From the IMG/VR virus record IMGVR_UViG_3300034101_002201, positions 32,348-96,347 of that record: a stretch of DNA of 64,000 nt; one strand, written 5' to 3'. The DNA comes from a virus. The notes below the pieces were generated by a model, which was given only the letters and a program-made list of their open reading frames with translations, did not search any database and had not been told where the DNA came from. The translations under genes and the position numbers were made by a program. Shown piece after piece: positions 38,500 through 57,499 of the stretch; within the stretch, counting starts at the first letter, position 1; each line of letters begins with the position of its first letter.

Positions 38500-41400
38500 T
38501 ATTTTCCTCTGATACGTAATGGTAATGATTCAGAAATAATCGTTGTCCCGCTAGTCACAAGCATTAATCCAGATTCAGATATGCTTCTTGGGTATCCGCT
38601 TGCAAACATGGATAATCCAGACGGCATTGCGCCAGAAGCGAAGCCTAATATTGCACTATTATACATTCCTAATGTATTATACACATTTGCCGACACATCT
38701 ACTCTGGTATATAGGGGTAATGAACTACTTGGCAAAGCGTTGGTTCCAAAAGAATACAATAGAAGACCTGTTTTCTTAGGGGTGCCAGACTTGTATTCAC
38801 CAATTACTGCCTCTATATATGGTCTATGTGTTATAAAGCTTTGCGTAGAAGGATCTTGACCAGAAACCTCTAAAAATATATATCCATCTTTTGTTGCGTA
38901 AACATCATTAGATGTAATAACAGGTACATTGGGATCACCCGCATTATAGAATTTAATTCTAGCTTCTTTATTTTCACTTACTTTATCACCAAAGACTCTA
39001 CCCTCTATCCAAGCATTTTCATTTCTGGTAGATGGCGGATTTTGTCTTAACATTATATCTTTGTCATAAACAATGCCAGATGTATTCCAATATTCATTAC
39101 CAACAAATATAGTATAATCAGCATCACTTCTGTAAGGTCTAGTAAGATATACATTTGAGCCATATTGTTCATTTTCAAGTCTACTTGGCGATGTGTCTTT
39201 TTCAACGAATTTCCAATCTCTAGCTCTCCTATTTGCCCAATCAGAAAATCCATACTCATATGTATAAACTGCCCCAGCTTTTGGTATATATGAATATTGT
39301 TGATTACCATAGTTTTGTCTATTTCCAGAAATACCAAGATCTATTACCTGTCTTGTAGTAATGTCAAAGGATTCATCAAAGTACTTTCTACCAAACTCTC
39401 CTCTTGTAATAATTTGTTCATTTCCATATGAATGACCGGGAGCGCCAATAAGCATTATGTCATTATTTAAATACAATGACTCTCCAAATCTATCAGATAC
39501 AATTGACACTCCGCTATTTTGTCCCATCAATGAATCTGGTTTTAATTTTTTAACGCACTGCCAAGAAATATTTACATCATCAACACCAGATCCATTCCCA
39601 GTTTTTTCAAAGACATATACAGCACCACCGCCACCATTCTTTCCTAACGATAATTGACTTGTTGTACTCCAAGGATTTATATTTTCTGATTTAAATGCCG
39701 AGAATGGAGAACCAATAATAACTTTATTTTCTTGTATGGAAACAGAATAACCAAATAAATCTCCGGGATATAGATCTGGAATTTTATCTAAATCCATATA
39801 ATCATATCCTTTATCTTTCAATAGTTCTGGTAATCCACCATCAATTGTGGCATCAACATAAAGATTACCACCTATTACTCCACTAAATCGTGGATACATA
39901 CATCCAGTTTGTAAAATACTTGCGAAGAAACCACTGATAAATTCATTTTTTGTTTCTTCTATTTCTTTTTGATCTGTCAAATCTGCCCAAGGTATATCTG
40001 GTCTATCTGTGACGTATTCAGAATTATAAGTACTTTCTTTATTATTTATGTGAGAGTAGCTTGGACTTCCAAATGACGAATTACCACGGAAGAAAGATAC
40101 TAAACTTTGCATACTATTATCATTAATAAAGTATTTAGCTGGACTTCCTCTTTCTGGAGAAATTAATTTAGTTTGAACATTATATTGTCTACCTAATATA
40201 TCTGTTGGTGCAAAATAAGTTTCTGGATACAAACTTCGTATAAAGCGTCCAGCGTCCTGTCTAAACACGCCTTCCGAATCTACCAAGAATTGACCTTGAA
40301 TTAAATTAGGATCAGATAATAATGTAATTCTAGATCTATTATATCCAGCCTCAAATGATGACCAGATTTCTAATTCTTGTGCGGCGACTACTGGCCCATC
40401 ATCTATTAAATTAAGACTAAGACCTTCTAGTTCACACAGTTCTGTGGAACTGCAATATTTAGCACATTCTGTACTAATAGGTCGAATAACTTCTATCTCT
40501 GATGTACTGCTAGGAATACGATCAGATATCTTCTGTTGCTCATATCCAACTACAACATCATACTCAGAAAATCCTACAACATTTCTGGTAGATATCATAG
40601 CTCCAGATATTCCAACAAGTCTAGTTGTTCTTGGTCTAGGTTCAGATACTAAATTAAGGCTATTGGTATATCTAGTATTGCATCCAATGTAGATGTTGAT
40701 TTCACTAACATTTTCTGCCACTTGCACTTGTAGAGTTTCTTCTGTATCTGCCGGTAGTACGAAGGCAAATGCTGGCGTAAGTGTTTCTCCACTAATATAA
40801 TCTCCATTATCATTTATATAAGATAATGAAGATTGCTCTGGAAAGCTTGTATCTGGACAGGGGTGACGGGGAGTTCTAAATACATTTTCTATAACAACAT
40901 ATAGTGGCACTCTTTCTGTTGGAGTTTCTTGCAAGGTTTTAAAATATAATTCATATCCAGAGCAAGCAACGACGGGAAAAGATACCTTACAAAATCCTGT
41001 ACGCATTTCCCAAAAATCATTTACTGCTATTTTTGGTACAAGATCATTTACAGGAGAATATGAATAAGCTAATGGGATAGAACTTGGTCCTAATTTTATC
41101 GGTGTAAAGTCTATTCTTCCATTCATTATAGGATCTTGAGACTCTCCAAATGAAACAAATGGTCTAAATTTACTAATGTAACTATCAGAATTAAGACCTA
41201 GAGAAAAATCTTGTACAGAAGCATACTTGTCTAAATAGTTCAAATATATTGGTTTCATTTGAACATTAAGTGCGGTCAATAATTTTTCTATATTTTTAAT
41301 ACTTGATATGTTTTGATCATATGTAATAACTAATTTTTTATTCAAACTAGTTGTCCTACTATTTCCCTTTAACCACAATTTAATAGCTTGTAATTCATCT

Positions 41401-44400
41401 GCATATTCTGGACTAGTAATATCATTTAGAGGATTTGCTATCCAAGCAACATCTATGCTATCGTGTAAATCTTTAGTCGGGAATCCCTGTATAACATCGT
41501 TATTTCCTCCCAATACTCCATACAAAATAGATTTTGGATAAGCATCTATGAAACTAGTCCTGTTAGGCCATTGATTTTCACCGCCAATTTGAGCAACTGT
41601 AGAATAAACTCTCTGTTTAGTCTTAGTGTCAATATGAGAAACTAAGTTAACATAGAAGTTCACATTTTGATCTAAATAGCTATCATATATAAATTGCTTT
41701 GATTCACTATTAATTCCTAATAAAACGATTGTGGAAGTATCGTTTTCATAATATGGTTCTTCTACGCAATAGTAGCCCCTTGGAGAGACTTCTTCTTCTT
41801 CTGAATATGGATCTATTTTTACTCTAGATACGGCTTTTGCTTGTAAGACATAACCTTTACCATCAAAGTCTTGGGGTTTATAAAACACGGCTTCTGGATC
41901 TAAATTATAGGCAAAGTTATATTGTAAAGATGAGTAGTCACTATTTCCACTATCCCATATAAAATCTAATTCTGGCTTTGCTCTTCCACCAAATTCACCT
42001 CTTTCATTACTATCAGTTCTCTTTTCTATTATTGGTATACTAATAGTCTTTTCTGGAATTTCTGGAATAGTTATAGTTTGCATAGTTTTTTCTGCTGCAA
42101 CTAATAATGGAATTGGTTCTTGATTTTTTGTTGGCTTTGGTGGTGGTGGTGTATCATAGCCACAGTCTGGCACATAAGATCCAAAAATTAAAGGCCAATT
42201 ATATGAATAGATGACCGTTACAAATCCCTTTGGTGTTGGTTTGCAACATAAATCTTTCCATTCTGCCCGAATATCACCATAATGCTGAAGCGGCATTTCA
42301 CATCTGCTTTGAATTTGTATTTTCTCGGGTGGATCACTACAATCTGTGACCTTAGCACATCTCATTTGCTCAAAGAAATTAGGATAATAAATCTTAATAT
42401 CTGCTACACCGCTACCTATTAAGTTGGTTCTAGCTACATATGTATCAGTACATCCAAAGGGAACAAAAGATGGAACTATATTATTGAATGATGAATATCC
42501 ATTTGGTAATGATTCATATCTATTTCTAGCTTGGACTAACCTCATGCGAGAATTTAGTCTTTCTAGAAGAGTATTAAGAATTTTATTAGATTTAGAGTAC
42601 TGACCATCTGCTTCCCATATTGGATCATTACCAACAAGTACTAGATTTCTATCACCAAGTGCTAGCCAATTAGATATCTTATCAAAAACTTCATTACTTA
42701 AAGCGTTTGCTGAAGGTGTAACAATAAATATTAAACCTACACCTTGAGGAATTTCTGGATCATCAAAATCAGTCTTAACAAAATGTTTGTCTGCAAAGAC
42801 ATCTTTTACGTAATCAAAGTGTCCCGAATCAGCAGTCTTATTAGACATACTAATCATTTCATGTAAATTGCCAAATTTTCCATACTCTATTACGCCACTA
42901 TGTGGATAATATTTTCTTGATTCAAAAATTTTAACAGATCCAGCATTAACAGTCGCGGGCCAAGTGGGCTTAATACTGTCATTTCTATATTGTGGTCTAA
43001 ATTTCTTTTGTCTACCTTTTATGAATTTTTCGCACATACAGGTATAATAAATATCAGCATCGTTTGATAGATTCATGCTGTCCGTTGGAGATCCAACTAT
43101 CAACTTAGTTCCATCTTCATTTAAGTCTAGACTATACCCAAGCCTTGGAGTTGGTGCTGCCAAAGAATTGATAAAGGTCCAAGACCCTATTGGCGCATTA
43201 TCTTGATATGTATATTTGTATACTTGTTCGTATTCTTTAATGTCATAGTCTAGTCTAACTCTAAATTTATCCTCTGGACTTAAACTAAGATATAATTTTT
43301 CAGCATCTTCAATTCTTCCGGGAGACTGTAAATATTGTTGTAGTTCTGTTGAATATTTTGGCTGTTTAGACTGTACCCAATAAGGTATATTTAGATATAA
43401 GTATATTTTTGAGTCTGGCTTATATTCATATACAGTAACAGCATCATTAATATAAGGAGATCCAACAGCTATAACATCAGTATCGTCACTTATGGTTACA
43501 GCGTGACCAAACCTATCTGGATGAGAATAAGTTACATTTGGGGATCTTATTTCTTGAATCAAATTCCAAGATCCACTTTCTTGTTCAAAAATGTAAACAC
43601 GACCACCACTTTCTGGAGGTATAGTAAATGAGGGGTTGGCACTAGAATTAAATGATCCAACATTATTGGAAATAAATCTCTTACCATTTACTTCATTTAT
43701 GAAGTTGAAATCTAAAATTTTATTTAAAGCACCCTTAGACAATTCGATCCAATCTTCATCTTGACCAAATTCTGATGTAAATACAATGGCTTCCCCGCTA
43801 GATGGCATATCTGTATCAAGAGTCTTTACGCCACTATCGTGGCTATATTTTTTATAGTAGTCTACGAATCTACTGAGTGCTGGATCTAATGCTCCAGATA
43901 GCGATGCGCTATTATCTATGCAAATAGATAGTAATGGTGGAATATTGTTGTGTACTTTATTTTCATCATAAGGAAATGCTGTTAAGAATGAGGATTGAAT
44001 TCCACTAAATATTTGATTTATTTTTTCTTCTGACGGTACTTTGCCTCTATTTCTACTAATAGTAGATAGACTAATAAAATCTGGCTTATCTGGAAATTCT
44101 GATACACTGAGATTTGGATCATCAGCTATGGGCTGAATAATCATTAGCTTAACATCAAATTTGACAGATGGTGTGCTAAAATATTTGTATACTAAATCTT
44201 TATTTGTTATTTCTGCAACTACTTCTTCATATCCTTTATAACTATTAGGATATCTACCGGGTAATCTATACGAAAATTCATCTGTGAATAACATTACGCC
44301 AATATTCACTGTGTCAGGTTCTGTAAATGATAATGATCGCGTCCACTTGGCACTCGGTCCACCAACAACGATGATATTTCTTGAGTCATGACCAAGTGAC

Positions 44401-47400
44401 TTTCTTCCACTATCTATTGCTAAGTCTAAAGAATGTCCAAATTGTCTTCCCTCTTGACCAACATTCCAATATGTTTTTAAAATGTTAAATCCGGCAGGCA
44501 AGCTACCATCAAAGTCATTTGATTCAACTATTACAGAATAATCTCTTAACATTTCATTTGGAAGTGTCAATATTCCACTTAATTGCCAAGGAGATTTATG
44601 CTTGTCTGTGGGCCAAGAATAACCAGTTGGCCTATCTTCTCTACGATAAATAAATACAGAGCCTGCTTCTTGTAGAGTCTTTGTTCCTCCGATTTCATTT
44701 GAATCTGTTATAACTAAATCTCTCTTGGGCGCACCAACTATTAAAATGTTATCTTTAGAAGCTATGGCTTTGCCAAACTCATCTCCAGATGCAATGTAAT
44801 TAGTGGGTGGAATAATCTTTATGCCACTATTGTTGAAGAATGTGTCAGTATTAGCTATTGAATTATATTCTATTTCTGTAAATTCACTAGGAACTTCTAC
44901 AAAGTCTTTCGATCCATATCTACCTACCACAGTAACAACGTAAGGATAATTAGGAATTAAACCAGAATATTTTCTAATACCATAAAAATGTCCACTATAC
45001 ATTAGGTCAGTATCAAATGTAGTTACCGTTTGACCAATATTGTTTGTCTTTGTACTTTTAAAAGCTCCGCTCGGCAAAGATAAGTTCGTGTAAGTATACT
45101 GAGGTCTAAATATACCACCGTCTACACAAACCTCTGGTTCATACCAATCGATGCCGTGAATAGTAACAAAATCTTCTTCGCATCTAGCATTATTGCCATC
45201 TTCACATATCCCGCGACAAATTAAAGAAACACCTCGTATATCATCATCAGCATCTATTGTGGCATAAGAATTATCAAACGATGTTATTCCATCTCCAACA
45301 TTATTTTTATCCCATCTTATTGATGCCATGACGGGATCAGCGGATTCATAAGTCAGATAATTTATAGTATATAGGCTACAAGTTTGTGTTAATAAATTTT
45401 CTTGGATAGCAGCAGTGACCAAATTCATCGAAGCGTTACCAGATTGGTATACGTATGGAGAATTTGTGAAAAGTGGCATTGAACCACTAATATATCTATT
45501 ATCTACTAATTGTAAACCTCTGATATAGAGCGGTATCTGCAATTCTGGAGTAATATCAGTAAAAGATGTCAAAGATAAAGATTCAAATAGTATATCTGTT
45601 TCGCCATTTGCGTACAATGGCATTGATATCTCTCTCATCGGCGCGCCACTAACATAAAAAGTCAATGGCCTAGGAGCAGAATCAAACGATCCAAATAATT
45701 GTGGACCGCTGAATACGTCTATAGTAGCAAAAGCCGAAGTAAACAAATTAACAGAATCAGAAGACCAAGTAGATCCAGATGTATAAAAATCAACATTTGC
45801 GTCATGTCTAGGCCACTTTGATCCACTAGTATATAATGTTACGCCAGAAAATGGTACAAAATTTATACCACTATTAAATAAAGTAATTGTATCAAATGAA
45901 TATTGCTTACTCACAGAATACATATTCATTGTTGTATTCTTACCAGATCCCACTACTAGTGCTTGGCATTTAATATTGGCATTATGTATTTTTACTTTGC
46001 TCTTAAATGGTTGTCCACTTGGATATACAATATCATACTGTAAAAACATAGAATTAATATCTGTATTAAGATATCTATCATTAAATTCTCTAGCAATTGC
46101 TTCTGATTCAAACGATGACCAACCTTCTGAATAATCAAAAATGCTATTTTGATTAAAGACAGTTTCAATAGTTCTTATACAGCCGGATGGTTCAAGATAA
46201 TGAGTTTGTCTTGTAACGAGTCCAAAGTCTTGATTTGGTTTAAATGGATGGTTCTGAGAGGGTGTATACAAACTTACTATTAATTTAGGACCAAGTTTTT
46301 CATCATTCCAAATAACGTTTCCGCTGGATTCATATTCTAGTGTGGTTTGTACTGATATGCCACCATCTCTAAATCCATAACCTCTAGGAAGATTTTTGAC
46401 TATCCTTTGTGGAACTCTATAAAATCTATTTGCATCATCGCTGTCCAAGTCAGCTATATTAAATCTTAAAAAGTCATTCTCTATTTGAGTGTGGTAACAT
46501 ACTCCAGAAAGATTAACATCATCTGGTAATGACTTATTAGTAAATTGTGAATAACCAGATCCATGATGATTAAGTTCATGTGTTATATAATCAGAACCAA
46601 CCCTTACAGTCCAAACATCAAATGCTGGAGAAAAGCTACAAGTTCTAAAAGCACCTAAACGCCAATCATCTATATTATTATCTACAAATGACCATAATTT
46701 ATATCCATCATTATTTTCATCTGCATCTGTCCAAAATTTTTGTCTTATAGTTTCAAAAAATTTGGAAATACTAAAATACTTGTAAACACTATCTCTATTA
46801 GCAGAGGGAACATATTTTTCTGGGCCGGGATAGTATATTTGAGCCGGTATATTGTTAGTAATATTAGTTTGATTGCCATATAAAGAATTAGCAATAGGAT
46901 GATTTTTTGTTGAAGTAGTAGAAATACCAAACTCATGAACAAACATTTTCATTCCAGATCCAATGTTGGAATGACCGATTAATAACTTGTTTCCACTTGG
47001 ATTAAACCCAGTGGAGGTATTAGTAATAGCAGCTCCCCTTGCGTGATTAAAAATTCCAGTTTTTATTTCATTATCTGTATATAGACTAATTCTGTTTGCC
47101 AAAGATGGAGAAGGAGATCCAAATTCTCTGAATGTGACTATTGCCGATAGTGGGTACTGGTATTCATAATATGGTAAACTATCCTTAGCCTTTGATATTG
47201 TTCCATTATTTATTAGATATGCACATAGATAACCGTTTTCATATCCAAGATAAAAACCATTTGTTTTTTGTGAATTAATCTGTGAAACTAAAATACCAGA
47301 GTTAAAGAAAAAGTCATTCGAATGATAGTCGGGTGTAAATCTAATATAAAAAGCAAAACCATTATTTGTGTTTACATTTCCAAAGTCTAAATGAGCATTT

Positions 47401-50366
47401 GCACCAGACACTCTTACGGCGTTGTCATAAGCATCGCAAATCTTACCATATAGAGGATGACCTATAAAGTTGTTGCTACCACTAGATAGCAATGTCCAAT
47501 CCAATGATGAATAATTACCAGTATATCCTACTAACTGATTAGTGAAAATATTATTATTTTTGAATCTAAGTCCAAGATTTTGATATTTTTCACAATTGCC
47601 CACATATTTTCCACTCAAAGAACCAAGTCCACTACCAAGTGGTAATGAAAATATATTAGAACCACTATCATAATTGAAATTAAAGTAACCAGATAAAAAT
47701 GGTCGTTCAATTTCTGGATTATAAAATGAGTAATCAAATTCTGCCGCACTAAACGGACCATTTGTAATTGAGCCAGTTACCCCTCTCCATCTACGAGAAT
47801 AGTTAGTTTTTAATGTTGGATAATTGAGATAACCGTGGGGAATATTTTCTATCTTAGATAGTTGAGTTGAATATCCTAAACCGTGATTATGCTTTCTATC
47901 TGATGCCGAATTGTAATTAGAAGGCATCAATGTGAATTCTCTTTTTGTCATCTCTCTTGATTGATCACCACCGATAGTAATCATGGACAAAGCATTAGAT
48001 GGAGTATAATTTACAATTAATTTAATACTACAAATTTTTGCTCCGGTTGGCAAGGGTGATATATCAACATATAAGTTTTCAAACATGGATGCCGATGTAT
48101 AGGATATTGTGTCATATCCAAAATAGTTTTGCTCATTGTAAATTTTCAATGGAAAAGTATATTCTTGAAACTGAACACCAGTTACCCTTGGACACATCAG
48201 CCAAGCAACGCCATAAAATACATCAGCAATATTTGATTTTTCAATAGAAGTCAAATTATTTGAATTAGATACCGTAACAGTATCTATCAGCTTAAATATA
48301 TCAGACTCTAGTGTTGGATATGTATATTTTAATTCTTCTTGAGCAAAAATTGTTCTTGCTTTATCAAGCACATTATTTTTACTTTGTATTAATGCATTTT
48401 CTGATATTTCTTTAGCAAATTCTTTGCTATATTTTGAAAACTGAACTTGATGTTTTGAATTAGTAATTACTTTATATTCTGATAAATTCTTAGTTGTTGT
48501 TTTGATCTGGTTTAGGATTGTACTATTTGGTTTATAAACATCAATATCTTGTATTGTATAATGATCGCCTAGACTTGTGATATCTTTTTCATAATACTGA
48601 GATTTGTTTGATATAGCGTCAAATGACATAGATAAATCATCGATATCATAAAAGCCAGATATTTTTGGTATATCTTGGATTTTATACGATATTGTATCAT
48701 CATTTTGTAAAAATCCGCCAATTTTTTTAGTTACATTCAAAAGCTTATCATCACTATAACCAACAACATCAATAACATAATCTGGAATACTTGAGTTAAT
48801 TTTACTAGCTATTACTTTTAGCTCAACGCTTGTTACATTAAAATATTCATCATTATTTTTTAACAACTCATATGCAGCATTGTTAAATGCGGGATTATTT
48901 CCTCCAAAGTCAAAAGCCCCACCAACAAAACCCTTGGCATCTATAAATGGTAAAGTATTAAACTTAACAACTAATTTCCCGCTTGGATAAGAATCTGCAA
49001 GACCAGAGAGCATTATAAATTGATCTCTAGAGTCTGTACGGATTTTATTGACTAGTATATTAGCATGTTCTAGAGTAGTATTTTCGTATCTGTTTTCTTC
49101 TTCATCAAAAGCAATCCATTTACTATTTTTAGTTGGATATATCCCATTATCATATTGATATAGCATCATTTCTGATGGACCAAGAACTCGACTTATTGTT
49201 CTTGGTGTGTAACTAGATAATTGATATATCGGTAAAAATGATTCAATTGCTAAGTTTTCTGTACCGCTGTTTCCAACTTCTACGGCAGAAATTTTTAAAT
49301 AATTAAGTGGATCAATTAGTGGATTAAACTGCGGATAAGTAGACAAACAAGTATCTTCGTATCCCTCGTCAAATTTTTCAGAAAATGGTGATTGTTCGCA
49401 TTTTGCGCTAATAGAAAATGATAGTGTATATCCGCTTGGCTGATTTATTAATGGATAACTATTTTGCCACTGATAAGATGAAACTAGATTATTTGTTTTA
49501 GTATCAGAAATATAGGTAGTATATCCGGTATCTGGTTTTATGTTTATATCATTATATGATATTATTAAATTGCCAGATGGGTCTTGAAATTTTACATCAT
49601 AAATTTTGTAATATTGTGGCTTTCTCTCCATATAATTGCTATATGGTGCAAATGCTCTTATAGCAAAATAACTTTGCTTCGCTATCAAGTTTGGCTTGCT
49701 GACAGAAAATTTATATACTATGTCTCCGCTAACTAGTAGATTATTTGGAAATACATAAGAAACTTCATCATCTGTAATGAGATATCCGTTATTACGATTC
49801 GAAGTATAGTCACCTATAAAAACACCTTCATCTACAGCACCGTCGTGTCTAACTGGATATTCAGTTGATAAATAATCATAATTTTCGAGAAGAATTGAAT
49901 TACCATTTTCTGTTATCAAATTTTCAAAATTAGTAATTTTTACATCAACTGGAGAATTATCATATTTTGTAGAAAACTGAGCAAAACCGCTGGGAAACAA
50001 TTTTTGAGTAGCAATAAATCCTGCGGAGCCAAAAAATTTATCAGCATATTTTATACTGTATTTACTTGAAGACCCATTTCTTGATCGCAAAGTTCCATCT
50101 AATATGCTAATAAATTTTAAATCACTATTACGTCCACCTAATCTTGATATTGGAGATAAATTTGAATTTTCTCTTAGTCTTACACCACCAAAAAAACTAA
50201 GGCGTGTTGCACCATTAGCAATAAATTGTGTGTTAGCTCTTATTTTAAAAACTGAACCGTTTTTGTGATTTATTGGTCCAAGTACAGATGAATTTTTAGC
50301 AACTAATTTACTAGTAGCTTTAATTCTTTCGTAATCGGTAGGTACTAAACAAATCTCACAAGTCAT
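38499..50366 (-). CDS. giant virion protein with a LamG-like domain and FG-GAP beta-propeller repeats
   Basis: 3955 aa; FG...GAP/GSP repeats (DEFGK..IVGAP, QFGH..VGGP, RFGH..VGSP, RLGY..VGSP, LFGY..IGSP, RFGE..IGAP, QYGS); LamG-like GFAFYIRF...GFYLGY. Confidence 0.7.
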   Translation of the reverse strand: MTCEICLVPTDYERIKATSKLVAKNSSVLGPINHKNGSVFKIRANTQFIANGATRLSFFGGVRLRENSNLSPISRLGGRNSDLKFISILDGTLRSRNGSSSKYSIKYADKFFGSAGFIATQKLFPSGFAQFSTKYDNSPVDVKITNFENLITENGNSILLENYDYLSTEYPVRHDGAVDEGVFIGDYTSNRNNGYLITDDEVSYVFPNNLLVSGDIVYKFSVSKPNLIAKQSYFAIRAFAPYSNYMERKPQYYKIYDVKFQDPSGNLIISYNDINIKPDTGYTTYISDTKTNNLVSSYQWQNSYPLINQPSGYTLSFSISAKCEQSPFSEKFDEGYEDTCLSTYPQFNPLIDPLNYLKISAVEVGNSGTENLAIESFLPIYQLSSYTPRTISRVLGPSEMMLYQYDNGIYPTKNSKWIAFDEEENRYENTTLEHANILVNKIRTDSRDQFIMLSGLADSYPSGKLVVKFNTLPFIDAKGFVGGAFDFGGNNPAFNNAAYELLKNNDEYFNVTSVELKVIASKINSSIPDYVIDVVGYSDDKLLNVTKKIGGFLQNDDTISYKIQDIPKISGFYDIDDLSMSFDAISNKSQYYEKDITSLGDHYTIQDIDVYKPNSTILNQIKTTTKNLSEYKVITNSKHQVQFSKYSKEFAKEISENALIQSKNNVLDKARTIFAQEELKYTYPTLESDIFKLIDTVTVSNSNNLTSIEKSNIADVFYGVAWLMCPRVTGVQFQEYTFPLKIYNEQNYFGYDTISYTSASMFENLYVDISPLPTGAKICSIKLIVNYTPSNALSMITIGGDQSREMTKREFTLMPSNYNSASDRKHNHGLGYSTQLSKIENIPHGYLNYPTLKTNYSRRWRGVTGSITNGPFSAAEFDYSFYNPEIERPFLSGYFNFNYDSGSNIFSLPLGSGLGSLSGKYVGNCEKYQNLGLRFKNNNIFTNQLVGYTGNYSSLDWTLLSSGSNNFIGHPLYGKICDAYDNAVRVSGANAHLDFGNVNTNNGFAFYIRFTPDYHSNDFFFNSGILVSQINSQKTNGFYLGYENGYLCAYLINNGTISKAKDSLPYYEYQYPLSAIVTFREFGSPSPSLANRISLYTDNEIKTGIFNHARGAAITNTSTGFNPSGNKLLIGHSNIGSGMKMFVHEFGISTTSTKNHPIANSLYGNQTNITNNIPAQIYYPGPEKYVPSANRDSVYKYFSISKFFETIRQKFWTDADENNDGYKLWSFVDNNIDDWRLGAFRTCSFSPAFDVWTVRVGSDYITHELNHHGSGYSQFTNKSLPDDVNLSGVCYHTQIENDFLRFNIADLDSDDANRFYRVPQRIVKNLPRGYGFRDGGISVQTTLEYESSGNVIWNDEKLGPKLIVSLYTPSQNHPFKPNQDFGLVTRQTHYLEPSGCIRTIETVFNQNSIFDYSEGWSSFESEAIAREFNDRYLNTDINSMFLQYDIVYPSGQPFKSKVKIHNANIKCQALVVGSGKNTTMNMYSVSKQYSFDTITLFNSGINFVPFSGVTLYTSGSKWPRHDANVDFYTSGSTWSSDSVNLFTSAFATIDVFSGPQLFGSFDSAPRPLTFYVSGAPMREISMPLYANGETDILFESLSLTSFTDITPELQIPLYIRGLQLVDNRYISGSMPLFTNSPYVYQSGNASMNLVTAAIQENLLTQTCSLYTINYLTYESADPVMASIRWDKNNVGDGITSFDNSYATIDADDDIRGVSLICRGICEDGNNARCEEDFVTIHGIDWYEPEVCVDGGIFRPQYTYTNLSLPSGAFKSTKTNNIGQTVTTFDTDLMYSGHFYGIRKYSGLIPNYPYVVTVVGRYGSKDFVEVPSEFTEIEYNSIANTDTFFNNSGIKIIPPTNYIASGDEFGKAIASKDNILIVGAPKRDLVITDSNEIGGTKTLQEAGSVFIYRREDRPTGYSWPTDKHKSPWQLSGILTLPNEMLRDYSVIVESNDFDGSLPAGFNILKTYWNVGQEGRQFGHSLDLAIDSGRKSLGHDSRNIIVVGGPSAKWTRSLSFTEPDTVNIGVMLFTDEFSYRLPGRYPNSYKGYEEVVAEITNKDLVYKYFSTPSVKFDVKLMIIQPIADDPNLSVSEFPDKPDFISLSTISRNRGKVPSEEKINQIFSGIQSSFLTAFPYDENKVHNNIPPLLSICIDNSASLSGALDPALSRFVDYYKKYSHDSGVKTLDTDMPSSGEAIVFTSEFGQDEDWIELSKGALNKILDFNFINEVNGKRFISNNVGSFNSSANPSFTIPPESGGRVYIFEQESGSWNLIQEIRSPNVTYSHPDRFGHAVTISDDTDVIAVGSPYINDAVTVYEYKPDSKIYLYLNIPYWVQSKQPKYSTELQQYLQSPGRIEDAEKLYLSLSPEDKFRVRLDYDIKEYEQVYKYTYQDNAPIGSWTFINSLAAPTPRLGYSLDLNEDGTKLIVGSPTDSMNLSNDADIYYTCMCEKFIKGRQKKFRPQYRNDSIKPTWPATVNAGSVKIFESRKYYPHSGVIEYGKFGNLHEMISMSNKTADSGHFDYVKDVFADKHFVKTDFDDPEIPQGVGLIFIVTPSANALSNEVFDKISNWLALGDRNLVLVGNDPIWEADGQYSKSNKILNTLLERLNSRMRLVQARNRYESLPNGYSSFNNIVPSFVPFGCTDTYVARTNLIGSGVADIKIYYPNFFEQMRCAKVTDCSDPPEKIQIQSRCEMPLQHYGDIRAEWKDLCCKPTPKGFVTVIYSYNWPLIFGSYVPDCGYDTPPPPKPTKNQEPIPLLVAAEKTMQTITIPEIPEKTISIPIIEKRTDSNERGEFGGRAKPELDFIWDSGNSDYSSLQYNFAYNLDPEAVFYKPQDFDGKGYVLQAKAVSRVKIDPYSEEEEVSPRGYYCVEEPYYENDTSTIVLLGINSESKQFIYDSYLDQNVNFYVNLVSHIDTKTKQRVYSTVAQIGGENQWPNRTSFIDAYPKSILYGVLGGNNDVIQGFPTKDLHDSIDVAWIANPLNDITSPEYADELQAIKLWLKGNSRTTSLNKKLVITYDQNISSIKNIEKLLTALNVQMKPIYLNYLDKYASVQDFSLGLNSDSYISKFRPFVSFGESQDPIMNGRIDFTPIKLGPSSIPLAYSYSPVNDLVPKIAVNDFWEMRTGFCKVSFPVVACSGYELYFKTLQETPTERVPLYVVIENVFRTPRHPCPDTSFPEQSSLSYINDNGDYISGETLTPAFAFVLPADTEETLQVQVAENVSEINIYIGCNTRYTNSLNLVSEPRPRTTRLVGISGAMISTRNVVGFSEYDVVVGYEQQKISDRIPSSTSEIEVIRPISTECAKYCSSTELCELEGLSLNLIDDGPVVAAQELEIWSSFEAGYNRSRITLLSDPNLIQGQFLVDSEGVFRQDAGRFIRSLYPETYFAPTDILGRQYNVQTKLISPERGSPAKYFINDNSMQSLVSFFRGNSSFGSPSYSHINNKESTYNSEYVTDRPDIPWADLTDQKEIEETKNEFISGFFASILQTGCMYPRFSGVIGGNLYVDATIDGGLPELLKDKGYDYMDLDKIPDLYPGDLFGYSVSIQENKVIIGSPFSAFKSENINPWSTTSQLSLGKNGGGGAVYVFEKTGNGSGVDDVNISWQCVKKLKPDSLMGQNSGVSIVSDRFGESLYLNNDIMLIGAPGHSYGNEQIITRGEFGRKYFDESFDITTRQVIDLGISGNRQNYGNQQYSYIPKAGAVYTYEYGFSDWANRRARDWKFVEKDTSPSRLENEQYGSNVYLTRPYRSDADYTIFVGNEYWNTSGIVYDKDIMLRQNPPSTRNENAWIEGRVFGDKVSENKEARIKFYNAGDPNVPVITSNDVYATKDGYIFLEVSGQDPSTQSFITHRPYIEAVIGEYKSGTPKKTGLLLYSFGTNALPSSSLPLYTRVDVSANVYNTLGMYNSAILGFASGAMPSGLSMFASGYPRSISESGLMLVTSGTTIISESLPLRIRGK

Positions 50367-50374
50367 TTTATTTC

Positions 50375-53300
50375 CTAAGCCATTCTAGGCACAATTCCCG
50401 GATTACTCTTTAATTCACCATCTGTAGTTGCTCTAAGTGTATTAATTTTGTTCATTATTTCAGTTAAGATTTCATTCTTTACAGATTGTGATACACTAGC
50501 TAAAGCCTGCATACCAGTTAGATTTATATTTACATTGGTAGCATCTAATTTGATTTTAATTTCTGTACTTTTTAGGGCTTCAATATTTTTAGTTAAATCT
50601 CGGTTAAAAGTATTAAGAGCAGCGGTAAATATAGACATGGAATCAGAACTAGAACTTGGGCTTGGGCTTGGGCTTTCTGCATTCTTGCTACCAAATCTCC
50701 TATATCTAACCATTCCTCCGTCTGCCATCATCGCCGTTCCATTATTAGATACACCACTCGATCCATTGTTCATCGCTTGTAAAACACGTAAATTATTGCC
50801 TCTCTGAACAGCATTTCTATTAACTACAAATTCACCCGGAGTTAACATAGCTGGTATAGTATCTGTTCCCCTAGGTACAAATATACCATTACTAGCATAG
50901 AGTAATCCACCCTTTGCCATACCAACCGCATTTCCAGCTTCTCTGCCACGATTAACAACGTCTGCCAATTCTAATTTAGCAGCATTTACTATTACAGTCT
51001 CTGTCTGTACTTGCATTTCTGCCATTTCTGTTCCTAGTTGACCAGTTTCTCCAAGCATACCGCCTAATTGACGCAATCTGGATTTACTAGCTTCTTCTTC
51101 TGGTGTTGTACCAGATAATACTTGTGCTGCTCTTGCATCTCTTACACCCATGGAAGACAATGCAGCACCGGCAGCGGCTTCTGATAGACCTCCGGGACCG
51201 GCAAGTTGTTGACCATATAAAGTTTGTACGCCAGCCTCTTGTTGTCTTTGAATGTCCATAGACGCAGCACCAAGAGCCTGCGATCCATACAATTTCATTA
51301 GTCTTTCATCGCCACTAGCGATAGCAGCAGTAGCACCAACGGCAGATTGCTTTTTAAAGAACTCTTCTACATCACCCTTAACAAGAGATTCTAAAGAATC
51401 TTTTTCAAGTTTATTCTTTTCTTGAGTAATCTTGAGTTGATCTTCTTCTAGCTTGATTAATCCACGTATTGTTTCTATTTGAGTTCTATATGCTTTTTGT
51501 AAATCTTTTTGTGTTTCATCAGCTTCGACACCGGCAACACCCTGCATACCATTACGCTGGCTTTTTCTGGACTCTATATTACCAAACGCCCCACCAATTT
51601 CAGCATTCCTTCTTCTCAATTCTCCTATGTCGCCACTTTTCATAGCAGTTAAACCTAAACGAGATCCTTCAACATTAGATTTAGCTAATAAATTTCCTTT
51701 TCGTTCTTGGTTTGTTACTGCGCGACCACCATATTTTGCTTCAACTTCTCGCCCCTCCATTGTCAAGTCTAGAGCTTCTTGTTGAGCCTGCACTAAATTG
51801 CGTTCAGCTTCAATCCTTTGTTTAGTAAGTGATATCAGTTGTTGATTTATTTTGGCGGTTTGTTCAGCAACCTTTTTCGCTTCTTCAAGTGTCTTTTGAC
51901 CAGCTTCGTCAAGATATTTTTGAAACACACTAAGATCGCCACCTCTTAGTTTTGTCATATCATCATTTGATAGCTTGACATTACCAAGTACGTCTTGCAT
52001 TCGTTTTCTTACATCTTCACCTATACCAGCATTTTTTAATTGCTCGTCTAAATTCTTAGCAAACTTATCAGTGAATCCTTCTGCATTTAATCCACGGAAA
52101 TCAGCTTTACTAAAGTCTTTTTTAACTCCTTCGAATATTTCATTATAATTTGCAGATACGGCAGCAAAAGCTGCGGCATTTTCTTTAAACATTTGTACAG
52201 ATTTATCAGTAGCACCTAATTGTTCTAAATTTGCTGCAACATCATTGATAGCAGATTGAACATTTTTAGGATTCATGGCCTGACCAGCTTCGCTGAATGC
52301 CGCTTCAAGAGTTGCAACACCTTGAGTAATTGGAGTAGATCCAACTTCTAAACTATCTGCAAAAACAGATAAAGATGCAGCGGCAGCATTGGCAGTAGCT
52401 ACTGGGCCTCGCAAACCTAGATTTAACGCTTCAAATGCTTTTTTAGCTTTTGCAACTTCTTTGGCTATATTATCGAAGCCCTGTTTTAATTGAGTACTTC
52501 CTTGATTTACGAGAGAAAAATATAAACCGGGATTATTTTTCTTGATGTCTTCCATGACATCTTCAAATGATCCACCGGCTACAGCAAATTGTCTAGATAA
52601 AGCATTTATTGCTGGGGTACTTTGTTGTATTAATGCTTCTTGAGCTTTTTTATCGCCAGCAGACAATTCTTTATTTTCTTTGTCTATTCTTGTATTCCTC
52701 TGTTTGCCAGATTCTAACCCCATATAACCAGCTAGACCTAGTGTGCCAACTCTAGCTGTGCCACGCAGAAAACCCCCAACCATGCCACTCTTATTTTTTT
52801 CATTATCTGCAATAGCCTTTTTACTAGTTTCGCTATTTTTCATTACTTCTTGACCAGCCATGGCATTAGATGCTATAGCCTGAGAAGCCGTTATAGTTCC
52901 ATTCTCTAAGTCTTTCATTGCTTTAGTAACAGCTTCAGATCCATCGTTTAATGCTTTTTGTGTTTTTACTCCTTGAGCTTGCGCCGCAGCTAATGAACGA
53001 ATACTATCAGCTGTATTTCCACCAAATAAAGTTCCAATACCTATAGCAGCTTCTTTAATGTATGGTCCTATAATTGGAAGTTCGCTTCCTAATTTAAGAG
53101 CAGATGCTGTTGCTACTCCGACTGCTAATCCAAATGGACCAAAAAGTGAACTTATTCCAATTATAGTAGACCCTAAACCATTTATGGCTTCGGAGCCAGC
53201 TGCTTCTATGGCATTTGATTTAGCTTTTTCTACATTGCCATCTTGAATAGCCTTGTTAGCTTGACCTTGATAATCAACAAATGAGTCAATAACAGAAGTT

Positions 53301-56300
53301 ATTGCGGTAAATGCTAATCCTAAACCTATTGCTGGGCCACTCAATTTATTTAAATTTGTCAAACCCTTACCAGCTAAACCGCCAGCTTGTGCTGACACAG
53401 AAGCACCACTACCAATTACAGATTTGGCTGGGTTAGCTATTGTGGCAGATGCGCCCTTATAAAATTGAGAACCAGCCTTCGTAATCGTACCTCCAGCGGT
53501 AGATAATCCACTCTTTACCGCACCAACTCCGGGTATCTTAGATAGTGCATCCCCGCCAACACTCAAAGTTCTTCCTAATGCGCCACTGGCCTTTGTTGCA
53601 ATACCTTTGGAAGAACCAAAAATATTAGAAAATGTTGCATTTGGACTGTTCAATCCTGCACTAAATCCTCTGCCAATATTAGATTTATTTATAGCAGTGG
53701 CGGCTGTGGCACCTCTAGTAATTAAACTTTTTCCAGTATCTATAGTTGCTTGAGTTGCCCGTCCAGCTAATCCTATTCCTCTACTTAAACCGGCACCACC
53801 CGGAGCATCTACTCTTCCAGCCATTCCTCTTTTAAAGATGGTAGAAAAACTTTTTAGACCGGGAATTCCTCCTTTAATAGTAGAAAATAAATCTGTGAGC
53901 GATTTGGCACCACTCAAAAAATCTAAAGCATTTTGAGCTACCATTTTAGCTGTAGCTAAAGATAATTGTATATTCATTTGCTGTAGAGCTATAATAGATA
54001 TACCAATAGTAGAAGCTAAATTGCTAAAAGTGTTTAATAAAGTAGCACCGACTCTTTCAAATGCTGAACTATTTTCATCAATAACCGGAGTCAAAGAAGT
54101 GAGTGCAGCTTGTACAGCCGTTAATCCACCTAAAGAAAAATATAATGATTGTCCAAAATTCTGTACAAAGCCAGATGATTTGTTCTGAGATTCAGCATTG
54201 CTATCTACCGCTTTTGTTTGCGCGATTTGTGCTTTTGTTAAAGCTTCTGCTTGTTGAGTTAAAGAGTCTAATCCAACGAATGCAACTATGCCGGGATTGC
54301 TTTTGCTACTTGCCGGTTGCGCCCCAGCCATTGGTGTACCACTAGCAAATTTTTGAACAATTCCTCCGCTGGCATATCTTCCAACTTTATTCATACGGTT
54401 TAGATTACCGTAACCAATATTCTGGGCGGATGAGCGATTAATAACAAACTCGCCGGGGGTTAATAGGGCGGGAACGGTGTCAGTTCCAACTCCACCGCCC
54501 TTTGCAAACTGTTGCACATCCATCCAAAGATTTTTACGCCCCATCATATCAACAAGCTTGGAACTATTGATCTTAAATCGTGAACCGGGCTGTAGTGTAA
54601 ATTCACTTTCTGATTCTGGGGGTTTTTGATAAAATGTTTCCATTTTACCAGTTCTGGGATTCAAGGCTTGTTTAGAACCACCAACTTTTCTACCACTTAG
54701 TTGTTTCTCAACATCAACTCCCATAGCGTTCTTTTTAGTCATGATGGTCATCATTGCTGCCCATTTGTCTTCTGAGCGATCAGCATTATCCAAGAACATT
54801 TTGGCTTTATTCATTTCCTTACTAGTAGAAAGGAAACCAGATAGTTTAAATGTTCTTCCAATTATTTTTTTGGCTTCTTGATCATAATACTTTTCTCTAT
54901 CAAATAATCTAGTACCTTCTGGAATTTTAGGATTTTTATTAAGTCCAGTTTGGTTTGCCATCGAATCAAATGCATTGCGGGATATGGAACTATATAATAG
55001 TTTTGGTGCAGCAGATCTTAAAGATCTCATATCACGAATTTTATCAGCAGTTTCTTTTCTGTCGGATGAATATAAAGAGTTTCCTTCAAAGAAACTTTGT
55101 AGAGTGTTTTTAGGATCTCTAGCAACACCCCCGCCTTTGGCAAACTTTTGAATAAGTCCACCAAAGAACTTCTTTCTTGGTCCTTTTGGATTATCAAATT
55201 CTGATCTACCCTTACTAGTTCCTTCCATAGAAAGAACTCTTTTCTTCAGTGCTTGAAATGTTCCACTAGTATTAACTTGTTCAGCAAGAGTATTCATTGT
55301 TTTTCTAGATGCTATATCATTCAATATGCTACTATCTAAAGTCTTTTTAGCATCGGTTGGCTTGTCTGCTAGTTCTGAAAATGCTTTAAATTGCCCCAAA
55401 TGACTACCAATACCCATGGGAAAATCGAAAGCATCTCTATCTTGTTTGCCTCTATTTGCATCAAATGGCGCACCAAGACTACTTACAGCCGCTTCAAAAA
55501 TTTTGCCAGTAGCATCTTCTAATCCTATTGATTTAATTACATTTTGGTTAAAAGCACCAATAGCGGTTGGAAGGCCAACGGAAGAAGCTAATTGAGAAGC
55601 TACGTTTGGTATTATGCCTGTATAAGCATTTGTAAGAGAAGTTTTTATACCTTGTTCAACAGAAGAGTCTGAATTTTTTGTAGAAGGGAAAGACACCCCC
55701 TTAGTTGTAAATGTTTGTCGGTTTTTACCCCCAAAAGCTATTCTACTAACTAATTTTTCTAATCTATTTCCGAAAGTTAATCCATCTGGAGCTTCTTTGC
55801 GGTCCATTAAATTTTGTAGTTTACCGCTTTTATCAGTAAGTTTTAAGTTTCCAGATATGCCACCAGCAAGTTGATTATTGTTAGATAATGTAGCAAGAAT
55901 ATCTTTTACAGTAACAGTTCCTTTACCAGTAGCCTGCGAATCCATAGGATTTAAAGCTATTGCTCCAACAGTTCCGCCCATAGCATACCGATTATTATTC
56001 ATCGCCGCAAGTGTACCAGCACCCATTTTATTAACGCTACTCTTGCGTATAACAAATTCGCCGGGAGCTAACATCGCAGGAACAGTATCACTATTACCGG
56101 TGCCGGGAACTAAACCGCCTCTTGCAAATCCAAGAACTTTTCCGCCCTTATTATATGTTCGTCCAGATGTAGCACCGCTCATTATTCCACCAAAAAATCC
56201 ACCTAAACCTTTGGCAACTTTAAAAGCTGCTAATGCTGCTAGCATTGGAAGTAAAGGCTTAATAGAATCTGCGATCTTAATTAATGCTGAAGCTAAAGAT

Positions 56301-57499
56301 AGAGCAGAATTAGCCATGATTTGAAATGTAGAAGTTTCAGTAACACTGCGGATTAACGCAAGGAACTCTTCTCTAACTTTCATAATCCTAATGGCAAGTG
56401 CGGCTTGTGCTGATGCGGCATCTTGTGTTAAAGAATCACCAGCCTTCATGGCAACATTAAGAGCGGACTGAGCGGTAGAGAATTGCTGTAAAAGTGGAAG
56501 AACTTTACCAATCTGTCGGAATCCACCAAGCTCTTCAGCAATACTAATAAATGTAAGATCGCCCTCCCCCAATCCAGACAAAGCTTCACTTAATCGTCTG
56601 ATGGCTTCATATGGGCCAACGAACTTGCCATTAAGATCCACTAATTCCACGCCAAATTGTTTTAAGAATTCAATAGTTTTGGGACGTTGAATACGTGTAA
56701 AAATAGTACGTAAACCAGTACCAATACTTTCAGCACTTTCTCGCGTTGTGGCTCTAACACTAGTAAATAATGCTAATAGTTCATTTAAGTCACCGCCCGA
56801 TGCCTTAAACACACCACCTGTTCTACGAACAACGTCAATTAAGTCGCTGGCTTCTACGGCAAATGCACCGGCAACAGCATTGATAGAACCAAGTTGCTTT
56901 TCTAATGCTCCAACACCCTGACCAAATTGAGCAAGAATAGCAATAGCACCTTCTGCTGTTTCTGTTATACTATCAAAGTTAGGAGCAAGAGCAGCTTTTG
57001 CTAATGTTCTTAAGGCAATAGAAGTATCTTCAGCTGTTAGACCGGCTTGAGCTAATACGGTAGAAACTTCTAATAAATCTGACGAAGCGACACCAAAACC
57101 TGTAGATAAATTAGTTATCTGCTTAGTAAGACCACGAAGCTGGCTTATACTTTTGCCTGTTACTTGGCTTACTTTAATCAATTGGCGTTCAAAATCAATA
57201 GCTGTCTCTACCGCACTCCCAAGAGTACTAGTAAATAAACTAACTGCCCTAGTTGCAATAGAAAAAGCAGCAAACCGCCTAATAGAAAGGGCAAATGCTT
57301 TACCCATTCTTTCGGCGGCTGTTGTTGCTTGATTAGAGGCTTGAGCTACTTGCTGAATTTGCTTTTGAGCTTGTACCGCCCCCTGTACTTGTACATTGAC
57401 GGTAACGCCCTGTAATTGTTGTTGTATTTGTTGTACAACTTGTTTAACATTATTAGGAGCTTGTAGCTGTAATTGTGCGGTCAGTACGAACTTGGACAT
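50375..57499 (-). CDS. tail tape measure protein with internal cargo domains
   Basis: 2374 aa; TP901-like core (DFERQL, LAQAG, RESAESIGTGLRTIFTR, GGFRQ), hydrophobic segments, coiled coils, three DT(V/I)PA(M/L)LxPGEFV modules. Confidence 0.92.
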   Translation of the reverse strand: MSKFVLTAQLQLQAPNNVKQVVQQIQQQLQGVTVNVQVQGAVQAQKQIQQVAQASNQATTAAERMGKAFALSIRRFAAFSIATRAVSLFTSTLGSAVETAIDFERQLIKVSQVTGKSISQLRGLTKQITNLSTGFGVASSDLLEVSTVLAQAGLTAEDTSIALRTLAKAALAPNFDSITETAEGAIAILAQFGQGVGALEKQLGSINAVAGAFAVEASDLIDVVRRTGGVFKASGGDLNELLALFTSVRATTRESAESIGTGLRTIFTRIQRPKTIEFLKQFGVELVDLNGKFVGPYEAIRRLSEALSGLGEGDLTFISIAEELGGFRQIGKVLPLLQQFSTAQSALNVAMKAGDSLTQDAASAQAALAIRIMKVREEFLALIRSVTETSTFQIMANSALSLASALIKIADSIKPLLPMLAALAAFKVAKGLGGFFGGIMSGATSGRTYNKGGKVLGFARGGLVPGTGNSDTVPAMLAPGEFVIRKSSVNKMGAGTLAAMNNNRYAMGGTVGAIALNPMDSQATGKGTVTVKDILATLSNNNQLAGGISGNLKLTDKSGKLQNLMDRKEAPDGLTFGNRLEKLVSRIAFGGKNRQTFTTKGVSFPSTKNSDSSVEQGIKTSLTNAYTGIIPNVASQLASSVGLPTAIGAFNQNVIKSIGLEDATGKIFEAAVSSLGAPFDANRGKQDRDAFDFPMGIGSHLGQFKAFSELADKPTDAKKTLDSSILNDIASRKTMNTLAEQVNTSGTFQALKKRVLSMEGTSKGRSEFDNPKGPRKKFFGGLIQKFAKGGGVARDPKNTLQSFFEGNSLYSSDRKETADKIRDMRSLRSAAPKLLYSSISRNAFDSMANQTGLNKNPKIPEGTRLFDREKYYDQEAKKIIGRTFKLSGFLSTSKEMNKAKMFLDNADRSEDKWAAMMTIMTKKNAMGVDVEKQLSGRKVGGSKQALNPRTGKMETFYQKPPESESEFTLQPGSRFKINSSKLVDMMGRKNLWMDVQQFAKGGGVGTDTVPALLTPGEFVINRSSAQNIGYGNLNRMNKVGRYASGGIVQKFASGTPMAGAQPASSKSNPGIVAFVGLDSLTQQAEALTKAQIAQTKAVDSNAESQNKSSGFVQNFGQSLYFSLGGLTAVQAALTSLTPVIDENSSAFERVGATLLNTFSNLASTIGISIIALQQMNIQLSLATAKMVAQNALDFLSGAKSLTDLFSTIKGGIPGLKSFSTIFKRGMAGRVDAPGGAGLSRGIGLAGRATQATIDTGKSLITRGATAATAINKSNIGRGFSAGLNSPNATFSNIFGSSKGIATKASGALGRTLSVGGDALSKIPGVGAVKSGLSTAGGTITKAGSQFYKGASATIANPAKSVIGSGASVSAQAGGLAGKGLTNLNKLSGPAIGLGLAFTAITSVIDSFVDYQGQANKAIQDGNVEKAKSNAIEAAGSEAINGLGSTIIGISSLFGPFGLAVGVATASALKLGSELPIIGPYIKEAAIGIGTLFGGNTADSIRSLAAAQAQGVKTQKALNDGSEAVTKAMKDLENGTITASQAIASNAMAGQEVMKNSETSKKAIADNEKNKSGMVGGFLRGTARVGTLGLAGYMGLESGKQRNTRIDKENKELSAGDKKAQEALIQQSTPAINALSRQFAVAGGSFEDVMEDIKKNNPGLYFSLVNQGSTQLKQGFDNIAKEVAKAKKAFEALNLGLRGPVATANAAAASLSVFADSLEVGSTPITQGVATLEAAFSEAGQAMNPKNVQSAINDVAANLEQLGATDKSVQMFKENAAAFAAVSANYNEIFEGVKKDFSKADFRGLNAEGFTDKFAKNLDEQLKNAGIGEDVRKRMQDVLGNVKLSNDDMTKLRGGDLSVFQKYLDEAGQKTLEEAKKVAEQTAKINQQLISLTKQRIEAERNLVQAQQEALDLTMEGREVEAKYGGRAVTNQERKGNLLAKSNVEGSRLGLTAMKSGDIGELRRRNAEIGGAFGNIESRKSQRNGMQGVAGVEADETQKDLQKAYRTQIETIRGLIKLEEDQLKITQEKNKLEKDSLESLVKGDVEEFFKKQSAVGATAAIASGDERLMKLYGSQALGAASMDIQRQQEAGVQTLYGQQLAGPGGLSEAAAGAALSSMGVRDARAAQVLSGTTPEEEASKSRLRQLGGMLGETGQLGTEMAEMQVQTETVIVNAAKLELADVVNRGREAGNAVGMAKGGLLYASNGIFVPRGTDTIPAMLTPGEFVVNRNAVQRGNNLRVLQAMNNGSSGVSNNGTAMMADGGMVRYRRFGSKNAESPSPSPSSSSDSMSIFTAALNTFNRDLTKNIEALKSTEIKIKLDATNVNINLTGMQALASVSQSVKNEILTEIMNKINTLRATTDGELKSNPGIVPRMA
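54443..56155 (-). repeat. two DTVPAxLxPGEFV modules and AxGG motifs flanking the TMP cargo region
   Basis: Copies at 56051-56128 and 54443-54508; third copy at 50825-50920. Confidence 0.85.

Follow-up and report, generated by a model that had tools for sequence, protein, structure and literature searches.

Several tape measure proteins (TMPs), among them those of SPbeta, T5 and mycobacteriophages, are known to contain embedded lytic transglycosylase, M23 peptidase or Rpf-like motifs. In EcoRI, a member of the PD-(D/E)xK superfamily, the motif reads P-D91 ... E111-A-K113. The DNA studied here is a window of 64,000 nucleotides, by which we mean the whole stretch that was analysed, taken from the 96-kb IMG/VR virus record IMGVR_UViG_3300034101_002201 (60% complete by CheckV, GC content about 34%). 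It encodes a TMP in which a folded domain, named domain X in this study, carries a strongly conserved set of residues of the PD-(D/E)xK type. Injected phage effectors that carry enzymatic domains have been described as well, namely T4 Alt and the polyvalent proteins with ADP-ribosyltransferase (ART), GNAT and nuclease domains (PMC7824862).

Domain X resembles the enzymes borne by other TMPs in being folded and enzyme-like, in residing in a TMP of the TP901 family and in being flanked by extended or coiled sequence. Unlike these, it belongs to no known family, its motif is nuclease-like and not muralytic, it lies in the N-terminal quarter and it is mosaic among near-identical TMPs. With T4 Alt and the polyvalent proteins it shares the principle of virion-borne enzymatic domains that enter with the DNA, and an ART-like domain adjoins it. 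The carrier differs, however: T4 Alt and the polyvalent proteins are capsid-internal or separate proteins with shuffled domains, whereas here the TMP is the carrier, domain X is constant and the insert that follows it is variable. Enzyme-like domains in TMPs are thus already known. What is new is a domain of unrecognised fold that is confined to TMPs, has a nuclease-type signature, is present throughout a clade of thousands and varies as a mosaic around its fixed core.

Conserved residues of domain X

The TMP gene, domain X and its motifs were located at the following positions of the window.

50375..57499, (-) strand: TMP gene (P0001), an open reading frame (ORF) of 2374 amino acids (aa)
55169..55972, (-) strand: domain X, aa 510-777 (268 residues), a single globular alpha/beta domain according to AlphaFold2
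55493..55507, (-) strand: G665-K-I-F-E669 (GKIFE, aa 665-669), with the conserved Glu on model helix 151-165
55406..55432, (-) strand: conserved turn A-F-D692-F-P-x-G696-x-G698 (AFDFP, aa 690-694, at 55418-55432)
55343..55357, (-) strand: T-D716-A-K718-K719 (TDAKK, aa 715-719; DAK at 55346-55354), the (D/E)xK motif on a four-residue strand
55292..55303, (-) strand: K733-x-x-N736, on the helix after the (D/E)xK strand

The first-pass annotation of this DNA had placed GKIFE, AFDFP and TDAKK between YAMGG (aa 505-509) and FFGG (aa 778-781), and all of these positions and coordinates are exact. It had also proposed E669, D692, D716 and K718 as the residues to be conserved in homologues, and these four indeed rank among the best-conserved polar positions. 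In an alignment of 66 homologues with 23-94% identity, D692 was present in all 66 sequences and E669 in 65, the single exception being a Gln. Position 716 was Asp in 58 and Glu in 7 of 65 sequences, with no other residue found. K718 was kept in 63 of 65, A717 in 64 of 65, and position 719 was Lys or Arg in 58 of 65. Further downstream, K733 (59/65) and N736 (54/65) were conserved. Around these residues, G665, G676, G696 and G698 were each found in 66/66 sequences, the Phe of GKIFE in 63/66, F693 in 63/66, P694 in 59/66, P678 in 64/65 and P714 in 57/65. Among the acidic residues checked, only E669, D692 and D716 were more than 90% conserved; the next were D680 (42/64) and D689 (37/66). A core-only alignment (A5) of 34 sequences drawn from IMG/VR loci and fragments, with identities of 15-38%, gave the same picture: G665, E669, D692 and K733 were invariant, A717 and K718 at least 90% conserved. 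Judged from these alignments, the residue set is probably an enzyme site.

The order E ... hD ... (D/E)xK, with interchangeable D and E at the third site and a free middle residue, is that of the PD-(D/E)xK proteins. The Asp is followed by the (D/E)xK after 21-32 aa across the clade, within the 10-35 residues of that family. Variants of the (D/E)xK in the clade are DAR, DSK, EFK, EVK and D[AV]T-R, the middle residue being mostly A, but also S, F or V; replacement of K718 by R or T, the D[AV]T-R form included, is the rarer natural variant. The same signature is present in slot families that are otherwise unlike each other, for instance as GYIFEG...NFDFPAG...KAEAK, as GQLFEN...PFDFTRG...YVDAK and as GQFFEA...IFDFES...PNEFK. 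Written as a regular expression, the extended motif G..[FYLM][EQ]-x12-34-hD[FY]-x10-45-[DE]x[KRT] was found in 156/156 long TMPs of the clade, compared to 2/156 shuffled slots.

Predicted structure

An AlphaFold2 model of aa 510-777 was calculated from a 43-row alignment with whole TMPs as rows, in which the motif columns were verified to be correctly placed. The model is a single confident globule with a pLDDT of 90.0, a pTM of 0.84 and no segment below 50; around the motif (model residues 181-210) the pLDDT is 94-96. Model numbers are converted to TMP numbers by adding 509. The N-terminal part consists of strands 2-6 and 14-21, helices 22-31 and 67-80 with the short helices 42-45 and 54-57 between them, and strand 85-94. 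The middle part contains a long helix (105-131), helix 143-148 and helix 151-165, which carries E160 (E669). After a loop follow a one-residue bridge, F184 (F693), adjoining D692, and two short helices. In the C-terminal part, the T-D-A-K residues form strand 206-209, followed by helix 214-234 with K733 and N736 and by helix 237-249.

The motif core folded alone (aa 645-765) reached a pLDDT of 66 only, which indicates that the N-terminal strands are part of the same fold and that the 268 aa are one unit. F693 is a single beta-bridge residue in both the full model and this sub-model. Since F693 and T715 are the sole beta residues in the sub-model, they must pair with each other; if this bridge is antiparallel, the model would place D692 opposite D716.

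In the restriction-endonuclease (REase) fold the order of elements is alpha1(E)-beta2(D)-beta3((D/E)xK)-alpha2, which matches the predicted helix(E)-D-strand-helix(K/N) of domain X. As in PD-(D/E)xK proteins, the conserved Glu lies on a helix before the sheet (E669, helix 151-165), and the helix after the (D/E)xK strand holds a conserved polar residue.

Distribution in the TMP clade

The surroundings of domain X in the TMP were mapped as follows.

56126-57499, (-) strand: TMP N-terminal core, of which aa 60-458 were used for searches
55973..56125, (-) strand: first PGEFV repeat, 'GG..VPG.GN.DTVPAML.PGEFV...MN', aa 459-509, with PGEFV at aa 479-483 and ending in YAMGG
55130..55168, (-) strand: linker FFGGLIQKFAKGG, aa 778-790, between domain X and the ART insert
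54500..55129, (-) strand: ART-like insert, aa 791-1000 (PF03496 at E 0.0052, below cut-off)
54350..54499, (-) strand: second PGEFV repeat, aa 1001-1050, with PGEFV at aa 1015-1019
50720..50914, (-) strand: third PGEFV repeat, aa 2196-2260, near the C-terminus, with PGEFV at aa 2221-2225

Within the N-terminal quarter of the TMP, domain X immediately follows the first PGEFV repeat, which forms its N-terminal boundary and is found at about aa 474 in nearly all homologues. At its other end the linker pattern '(K/R)K.FGG(L/I)IQKFA.GG' recurs in homologues. The domain is basic, with a pI of 9.7.

A word-indexed search with aa 505-790 returned 31 proteins. A HMMER scan of 1.84 billion representatives with the domain gave 46 matches, one of which (P0049) was a false positive driven by repeats. 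The other 45 were either TMPs, mostly 1.9-4 kaa long and matching at about aa 500-1000, or short fragments at contig ends. Free-standing or otherwise fused copies of domain X were found neither among the 1.84 billion representatives nor in the short-length search. With the TMP N-terminal core, 2173 relatives were retrieved at E ≤ 1e-20, the best 120 being 77-93% identical. The hidden Markov model of domain X recognises just 17/101 newly found TMPs, though their slot, the region that domain X occupies, shows the motif. In 156/156 long TMPs examined, the motif core was present at the same place, directly after the first PGEFV repeat. Domain X is therefore a constant module of this TMP clade and not an optional toxin cassette. 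The suggestion in the first-pass annotation that it is a second injected cargo beside the ART has to be reversed: the ART-like insert is the optional part, detected by phmmer in 13/156 long TMPs and always between domain X and the second PGEFV repeat. The ART-bearing homologues are P0003, P0007, P0012, P0014, P0020, P0042, P0052, P0097, P0105, P0118, P0142 and P0145; in many homologues the second PGEFV repeat directly follows domain X.

A tblastn search of GenBank phages with domain X gave no match, and IMG/VR scans with domain X alone or with a wide alignment gave no usable matches. Against the TMPs of cultured phages (Bacillus SPbeta-like, Rhodococcus and Tsukamurella phages), the identity of the N-terminal core is only about 25%. 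The clade consists of abundant, uncultured siphoviruses with contigs of up to about 150-165 kb; the more than 100 metagenomic TMPs with cores of 77-93% identity lie on contigs of at most 166 kb.

Some variation of the slot was seen in individual TMPs. Two IMG/VR TMPs, L024 (4365-5399, + strand) and L025, have two tandem motif cores between the first and second PGEFV repeats, GFAFER...PFDFAL...FVDAK followed by GKVFED...PFDFKG...FVDAK. Another insert, 'GRAKGI..(A)PLVDDI...GSILPRPSAAIQALIKAGGGAVDVDRTLKRT.GD', follows domain X in L010 (4878-5480, + strand) and also in L012, L016, L017, L033 and P0123; this family is without a Pfam match and may be another optional cargo. Some more distant TMPs are without the X motif in the slot: L020 (4068-4595, + strand), L037, L038 (4098-4880, + strand) and L035 (4368-4823, + strand). 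The slot of L035 reads FDFDDT...VVTAR...DDD, which is HAD-like by eye, with a weak PF03767 match at E 0.14. A resemblance of L020 and L037 to staphylococcal nuclease (SNase; DGDT...TFR....D..E) was seen by eye only and was discarded after Pfam, PDB and direct SNase-model searches were all negative. An alternative nuclease in L038 (YPVD...GEVKFK), likewise seen by eye only, was not used as evidence either, the Pfam and PDB searches being negative.

Mosaic variation of the slot

Across 129 TMPs, the identity of the X-slot to that of the TMP described here was not coupled to the identity of the N-terminal core (r = -0.17), in contrast to the middle (+0.50) and the C-terminus (+0.42). Backbones 93% identical in the core can carry slots that are not alignable by BLAST, as was seen among cores of 90-93% identity, and backbones of just 42-64% identity can carry slots that are 40-55% identical. 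This uncoupling indicates that slot families are exchanged among backbones with retention of the motif. Everywhere but at the motif, the slot is both hypervariable and mosaic. On the sequence evidence, divergence among cores of 90-93% identity fits an active site under a changing surface.

The Ltp exclusion protein is described as targeting the TMP (Bebeacua et al. 2013, as cited in PMC3952083), as is the SNIPE defence protein in a preprint (bioRxiv 10.1101/2025.11.03.685801). It is plausible that pressure from exclusion and defence systems drives the variation of the slot.

The TMP gene and its tail module

The TMP matches PF10145 (PhageMin_Tail) at aa 126-312 with an E-value of 1.1e-25 and 91 bits against a cut-off of 33, and in addition the PHROG tape measure families phrog_4211, 1533, 28 and 1272. 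Together with its setting in a tail module, this places it in the TP901 family. Small ORFs lie upstream of the gene and giant tail genes downstream, encoding proteins of 3955, 622, 130, 1590 and 1155 aa. The first of these (38499-50366, (-) strand, immediately downstream), a giant protein presumably of the distal tail or for host recognition, has FG-GAP repeats (PF14312, E 1.6e-15) as its sole recognisable feature.

The three PGEFV repeats are about 50 aa long, with the consensus 'GG..V.G.G.(S/N)DT(V/I)PA(M/L)L(T/A)PGEFV(I/V).(R/K)..V...G...L..MN', and lie at the borders of the variable slot and of the C-terminal region. Their sole match is phrog_35029, a family of unknown function, which hits three TMP stretches. 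The pattern F/Y-A-x-G-G is also present at TMP domain junctions. Counted over aa 1-777, 791-1000 and 1050-2374, thus without the linkers aa 778-790 and 1001-1049, the TMP has no Cys, one His, which lies in domain X, and two Trp, both within the ART segment.

Nature of domain X

Residues fixed across families of 15-25% identity, a position 716 that tolerates only D or E, a confident fold, a basic pI and a fixed position are features of a catalytic or ligand site. Since the residue set is that of a classical metal site with two carboxylates and a lysine, the PD-(D/E)xK type was chosen for its interpretation. Our preferred reading, tentative and held with rather less than even confidence, is that domain X, whose fold is unrecognised, harbours a TMP-specific and probably metal-dependent hydrolase site of PD-(D/E)xK kind. 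In this proposal the fixed constellation comprises E669 on its helix, D692 in the F-D-F-P-x-G-x-G turn, D716 and K718 on the adjacent strand and K733 on the next helix. It would form a divalent-metal hydrolase site, most probably of a phosphodiesterase or nuclease, and domain X would enter the cell envelope or cytoplasm with the TMP, ejected ahead of the DNA. We infer the nuclease activity from the motif, and metal binding, hydrolysis and a nucleic-acid substrate likewise.

Several results weigh against this reading. The bare pattern E-x(10-40)-D-x(8-35)-[DE]xK occurs in 67% of composition-preserving shuffles of the 268 aa, and 20% of the shuffles hold at least as many E...D...(D/E)xK triples as the real sequence. 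The domain has no Pfam match at E ≤ 1, and sets of 11 and then 34 diverse members gave none at E ≤ 10. Domain X also has no PHROG or NCBIfam match and no weak family recurred, while PDB sequence searches with the single sequence and with two profiles found no match. In the model, neither beta1 nor beta2 is formed as a strand, and the D is separated from the (D/E)xK by two helices. Compared to PD-(D/E)xK proteins there is no detectable profile or structural similarity, beta2 is represented by one bridge residue in the F-D-F-P-x-G-x-G turn, and the sheet is completed by the N-terminal strands, not by a beta4 after alpha2. The additional invariant Lys (K733) is another difference from these proteins.

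Conservation across the homologues nevertheless indicates that the motif is real, though the bare pattern in the single sequence is at chance level. The E...D...(D/E)xK signature proposed at first pass hence holds up in its conservation, its third site restricted to D or E, its free middle residue, the Glu on a helix and the DAK on a strand. The REase fold proposed with it agrees with the data as to the residues; the alpha-beta-beta-beta core was not seen in the model and the fold searches returned no nuclease. Foldseek found nothing significant in the PDB (best E 0.37, no nuclease) or in BFVD (best E 1.0), and wide VIA-align searches with the full model and with the motif core alone returned no nuclease. 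The core-only search carries little weight, as the motif core folds poorly alone. REase cores give weak structural scores, and a weak similarity to them could hide below the helical matches in the Foldseek and VIA-align lists. The fold of domain X is either an unrelated one in which this residue set arose by convergence, or a REase-like core that is strongly derived, strands 1 and 2 having been reduced and two helices having entered between the D and the (D/E)xK.

Other searches for relatives gave no usable match in the ESM Atlas and, with the whole-TMP profile A2 against the PDB, coiled-coil noise only. A lead to MutH/Sau3AI (G...E..LG...DF...ExK) was dropped, as a search of the phage record with the MutH Pfam model was negative even at E ≤ 10. 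By inspection, the motif orders of protein kinases, lysozymes, HAD, Toprim and DDE enzymes are unlike the order E, D, (D/E)xK, K. In a limited literature search, no title or abstract described a TMP-borne nuclease.

The E/D/(D/E) carboxylates might also belong to another class of enzyme, a virion hydrolase with which the tail would cross the wall by cutting a lipid or sugar phosphate or an envelope polymer, be it peptidoglycan, capsule or some other glycan. This is unlikely in our estimation. Such an enzyme would account for the presence of domain X in all long TMPs of the clade, as for a function that every infection needs, and for its hypervariability, which fits the diversity of host envelopes. 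There is precedent in wall hydrolases embedded in TMPs (the TMP genes of SPbeta and phi3T are annotated as 'lytic transglycosylase'), and Pfam recognises no wall hydrolase in the TMP or the five large downstream tail proteins. However, lysozyme-like folds are usually easily detected, and neither these nor M23, NlpC or any other hydrolase gave a match in fold or profile. Specifically, GH19/22/23/24, M23 and NlpC/P60 gave no Pfam match and were not listed by Foldseek or VIA-align, though remote kinship is possible. Invariant or near-invariant lysines (K718, K733) beside carboxylates are atypical of glycosidases. In the lambda/T5 paradigm, moreover, the N-terminal quarter of the TMP leaves the tail last, which argues against a wall hydrolase at this place.

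Alternatively, domain X could be non-catalytic, its conserved residues forming a buried salt-bridge or metal cluster for packing of the TMP, refolding after ejection or docking at the inner membrane, with a variable surface that tracks host or defence proteins. We regard this as improbable as well. Exclusivity to TMPs agrees with it, as do the structural nature of many invariant residues, which are Gly or Pro (G665, G676, P678, G696, G698 and P714), and the natural variants of K718 (T or R) and E669 (Q). TMPs as targets of exclusion and defence, as described for Ltp and SNIPE in the sources above, would explain the mosaic variation. A structural partner of conserved tail parts, on the other hand, should match the conservation of the core (77-93%) instead of being unalignable, and tolerance of D and E only, with the same five polar residues kept at 15-25% identity, usually marks a catalytic or ligand site.

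That domain X is an optional, exchangeable polymorphic-toxin cargo of the Tox-REase kind, like the neighbouring ART, is very improbable: the exchange of slot families among TMP backbones and the repeated FA.GG and PGEFV junctions that bound the slot would suit it, but it is contradicted by the same motif core at the same place in 156/156 long TMPs and by the confinement of the domain to TMPs, and the kinship to Tox-REase supposed at first pass found no Pfam, NCBIfam or PDB profile match, PDDEXK families included.

A further proposal can be made, which is possible but doubtful. Domain X may be the founder of a fold family of its own, made up of metal-dependent nucleases or phosphodiesterases and exclusive to TMPs. 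Delivered at the tip of the incoming genome, it could cut host or competitor nucleic acid, or process or hold the end of the phage DNA. Recombination would diversify its surface, this part of the TMP being a target of host membrane defences and exclusion proteins.

Significance for TMP function

TMPs are usually viewed as rulers, sometimes with a wall-lysing motif, whereas all 156 long members examined in this clade carry an enzyme-like constellation of five residues. If domain X is catalytic, an unrecognised activity would be delivered during genome injection, together with a new enzyme fold. If it is not, domain X would mark where the TMP encounters the host and its defences. In both cases, E669, D692, D716, K718 and K733 are precise mutable targets for the function of the TMP after ejection.

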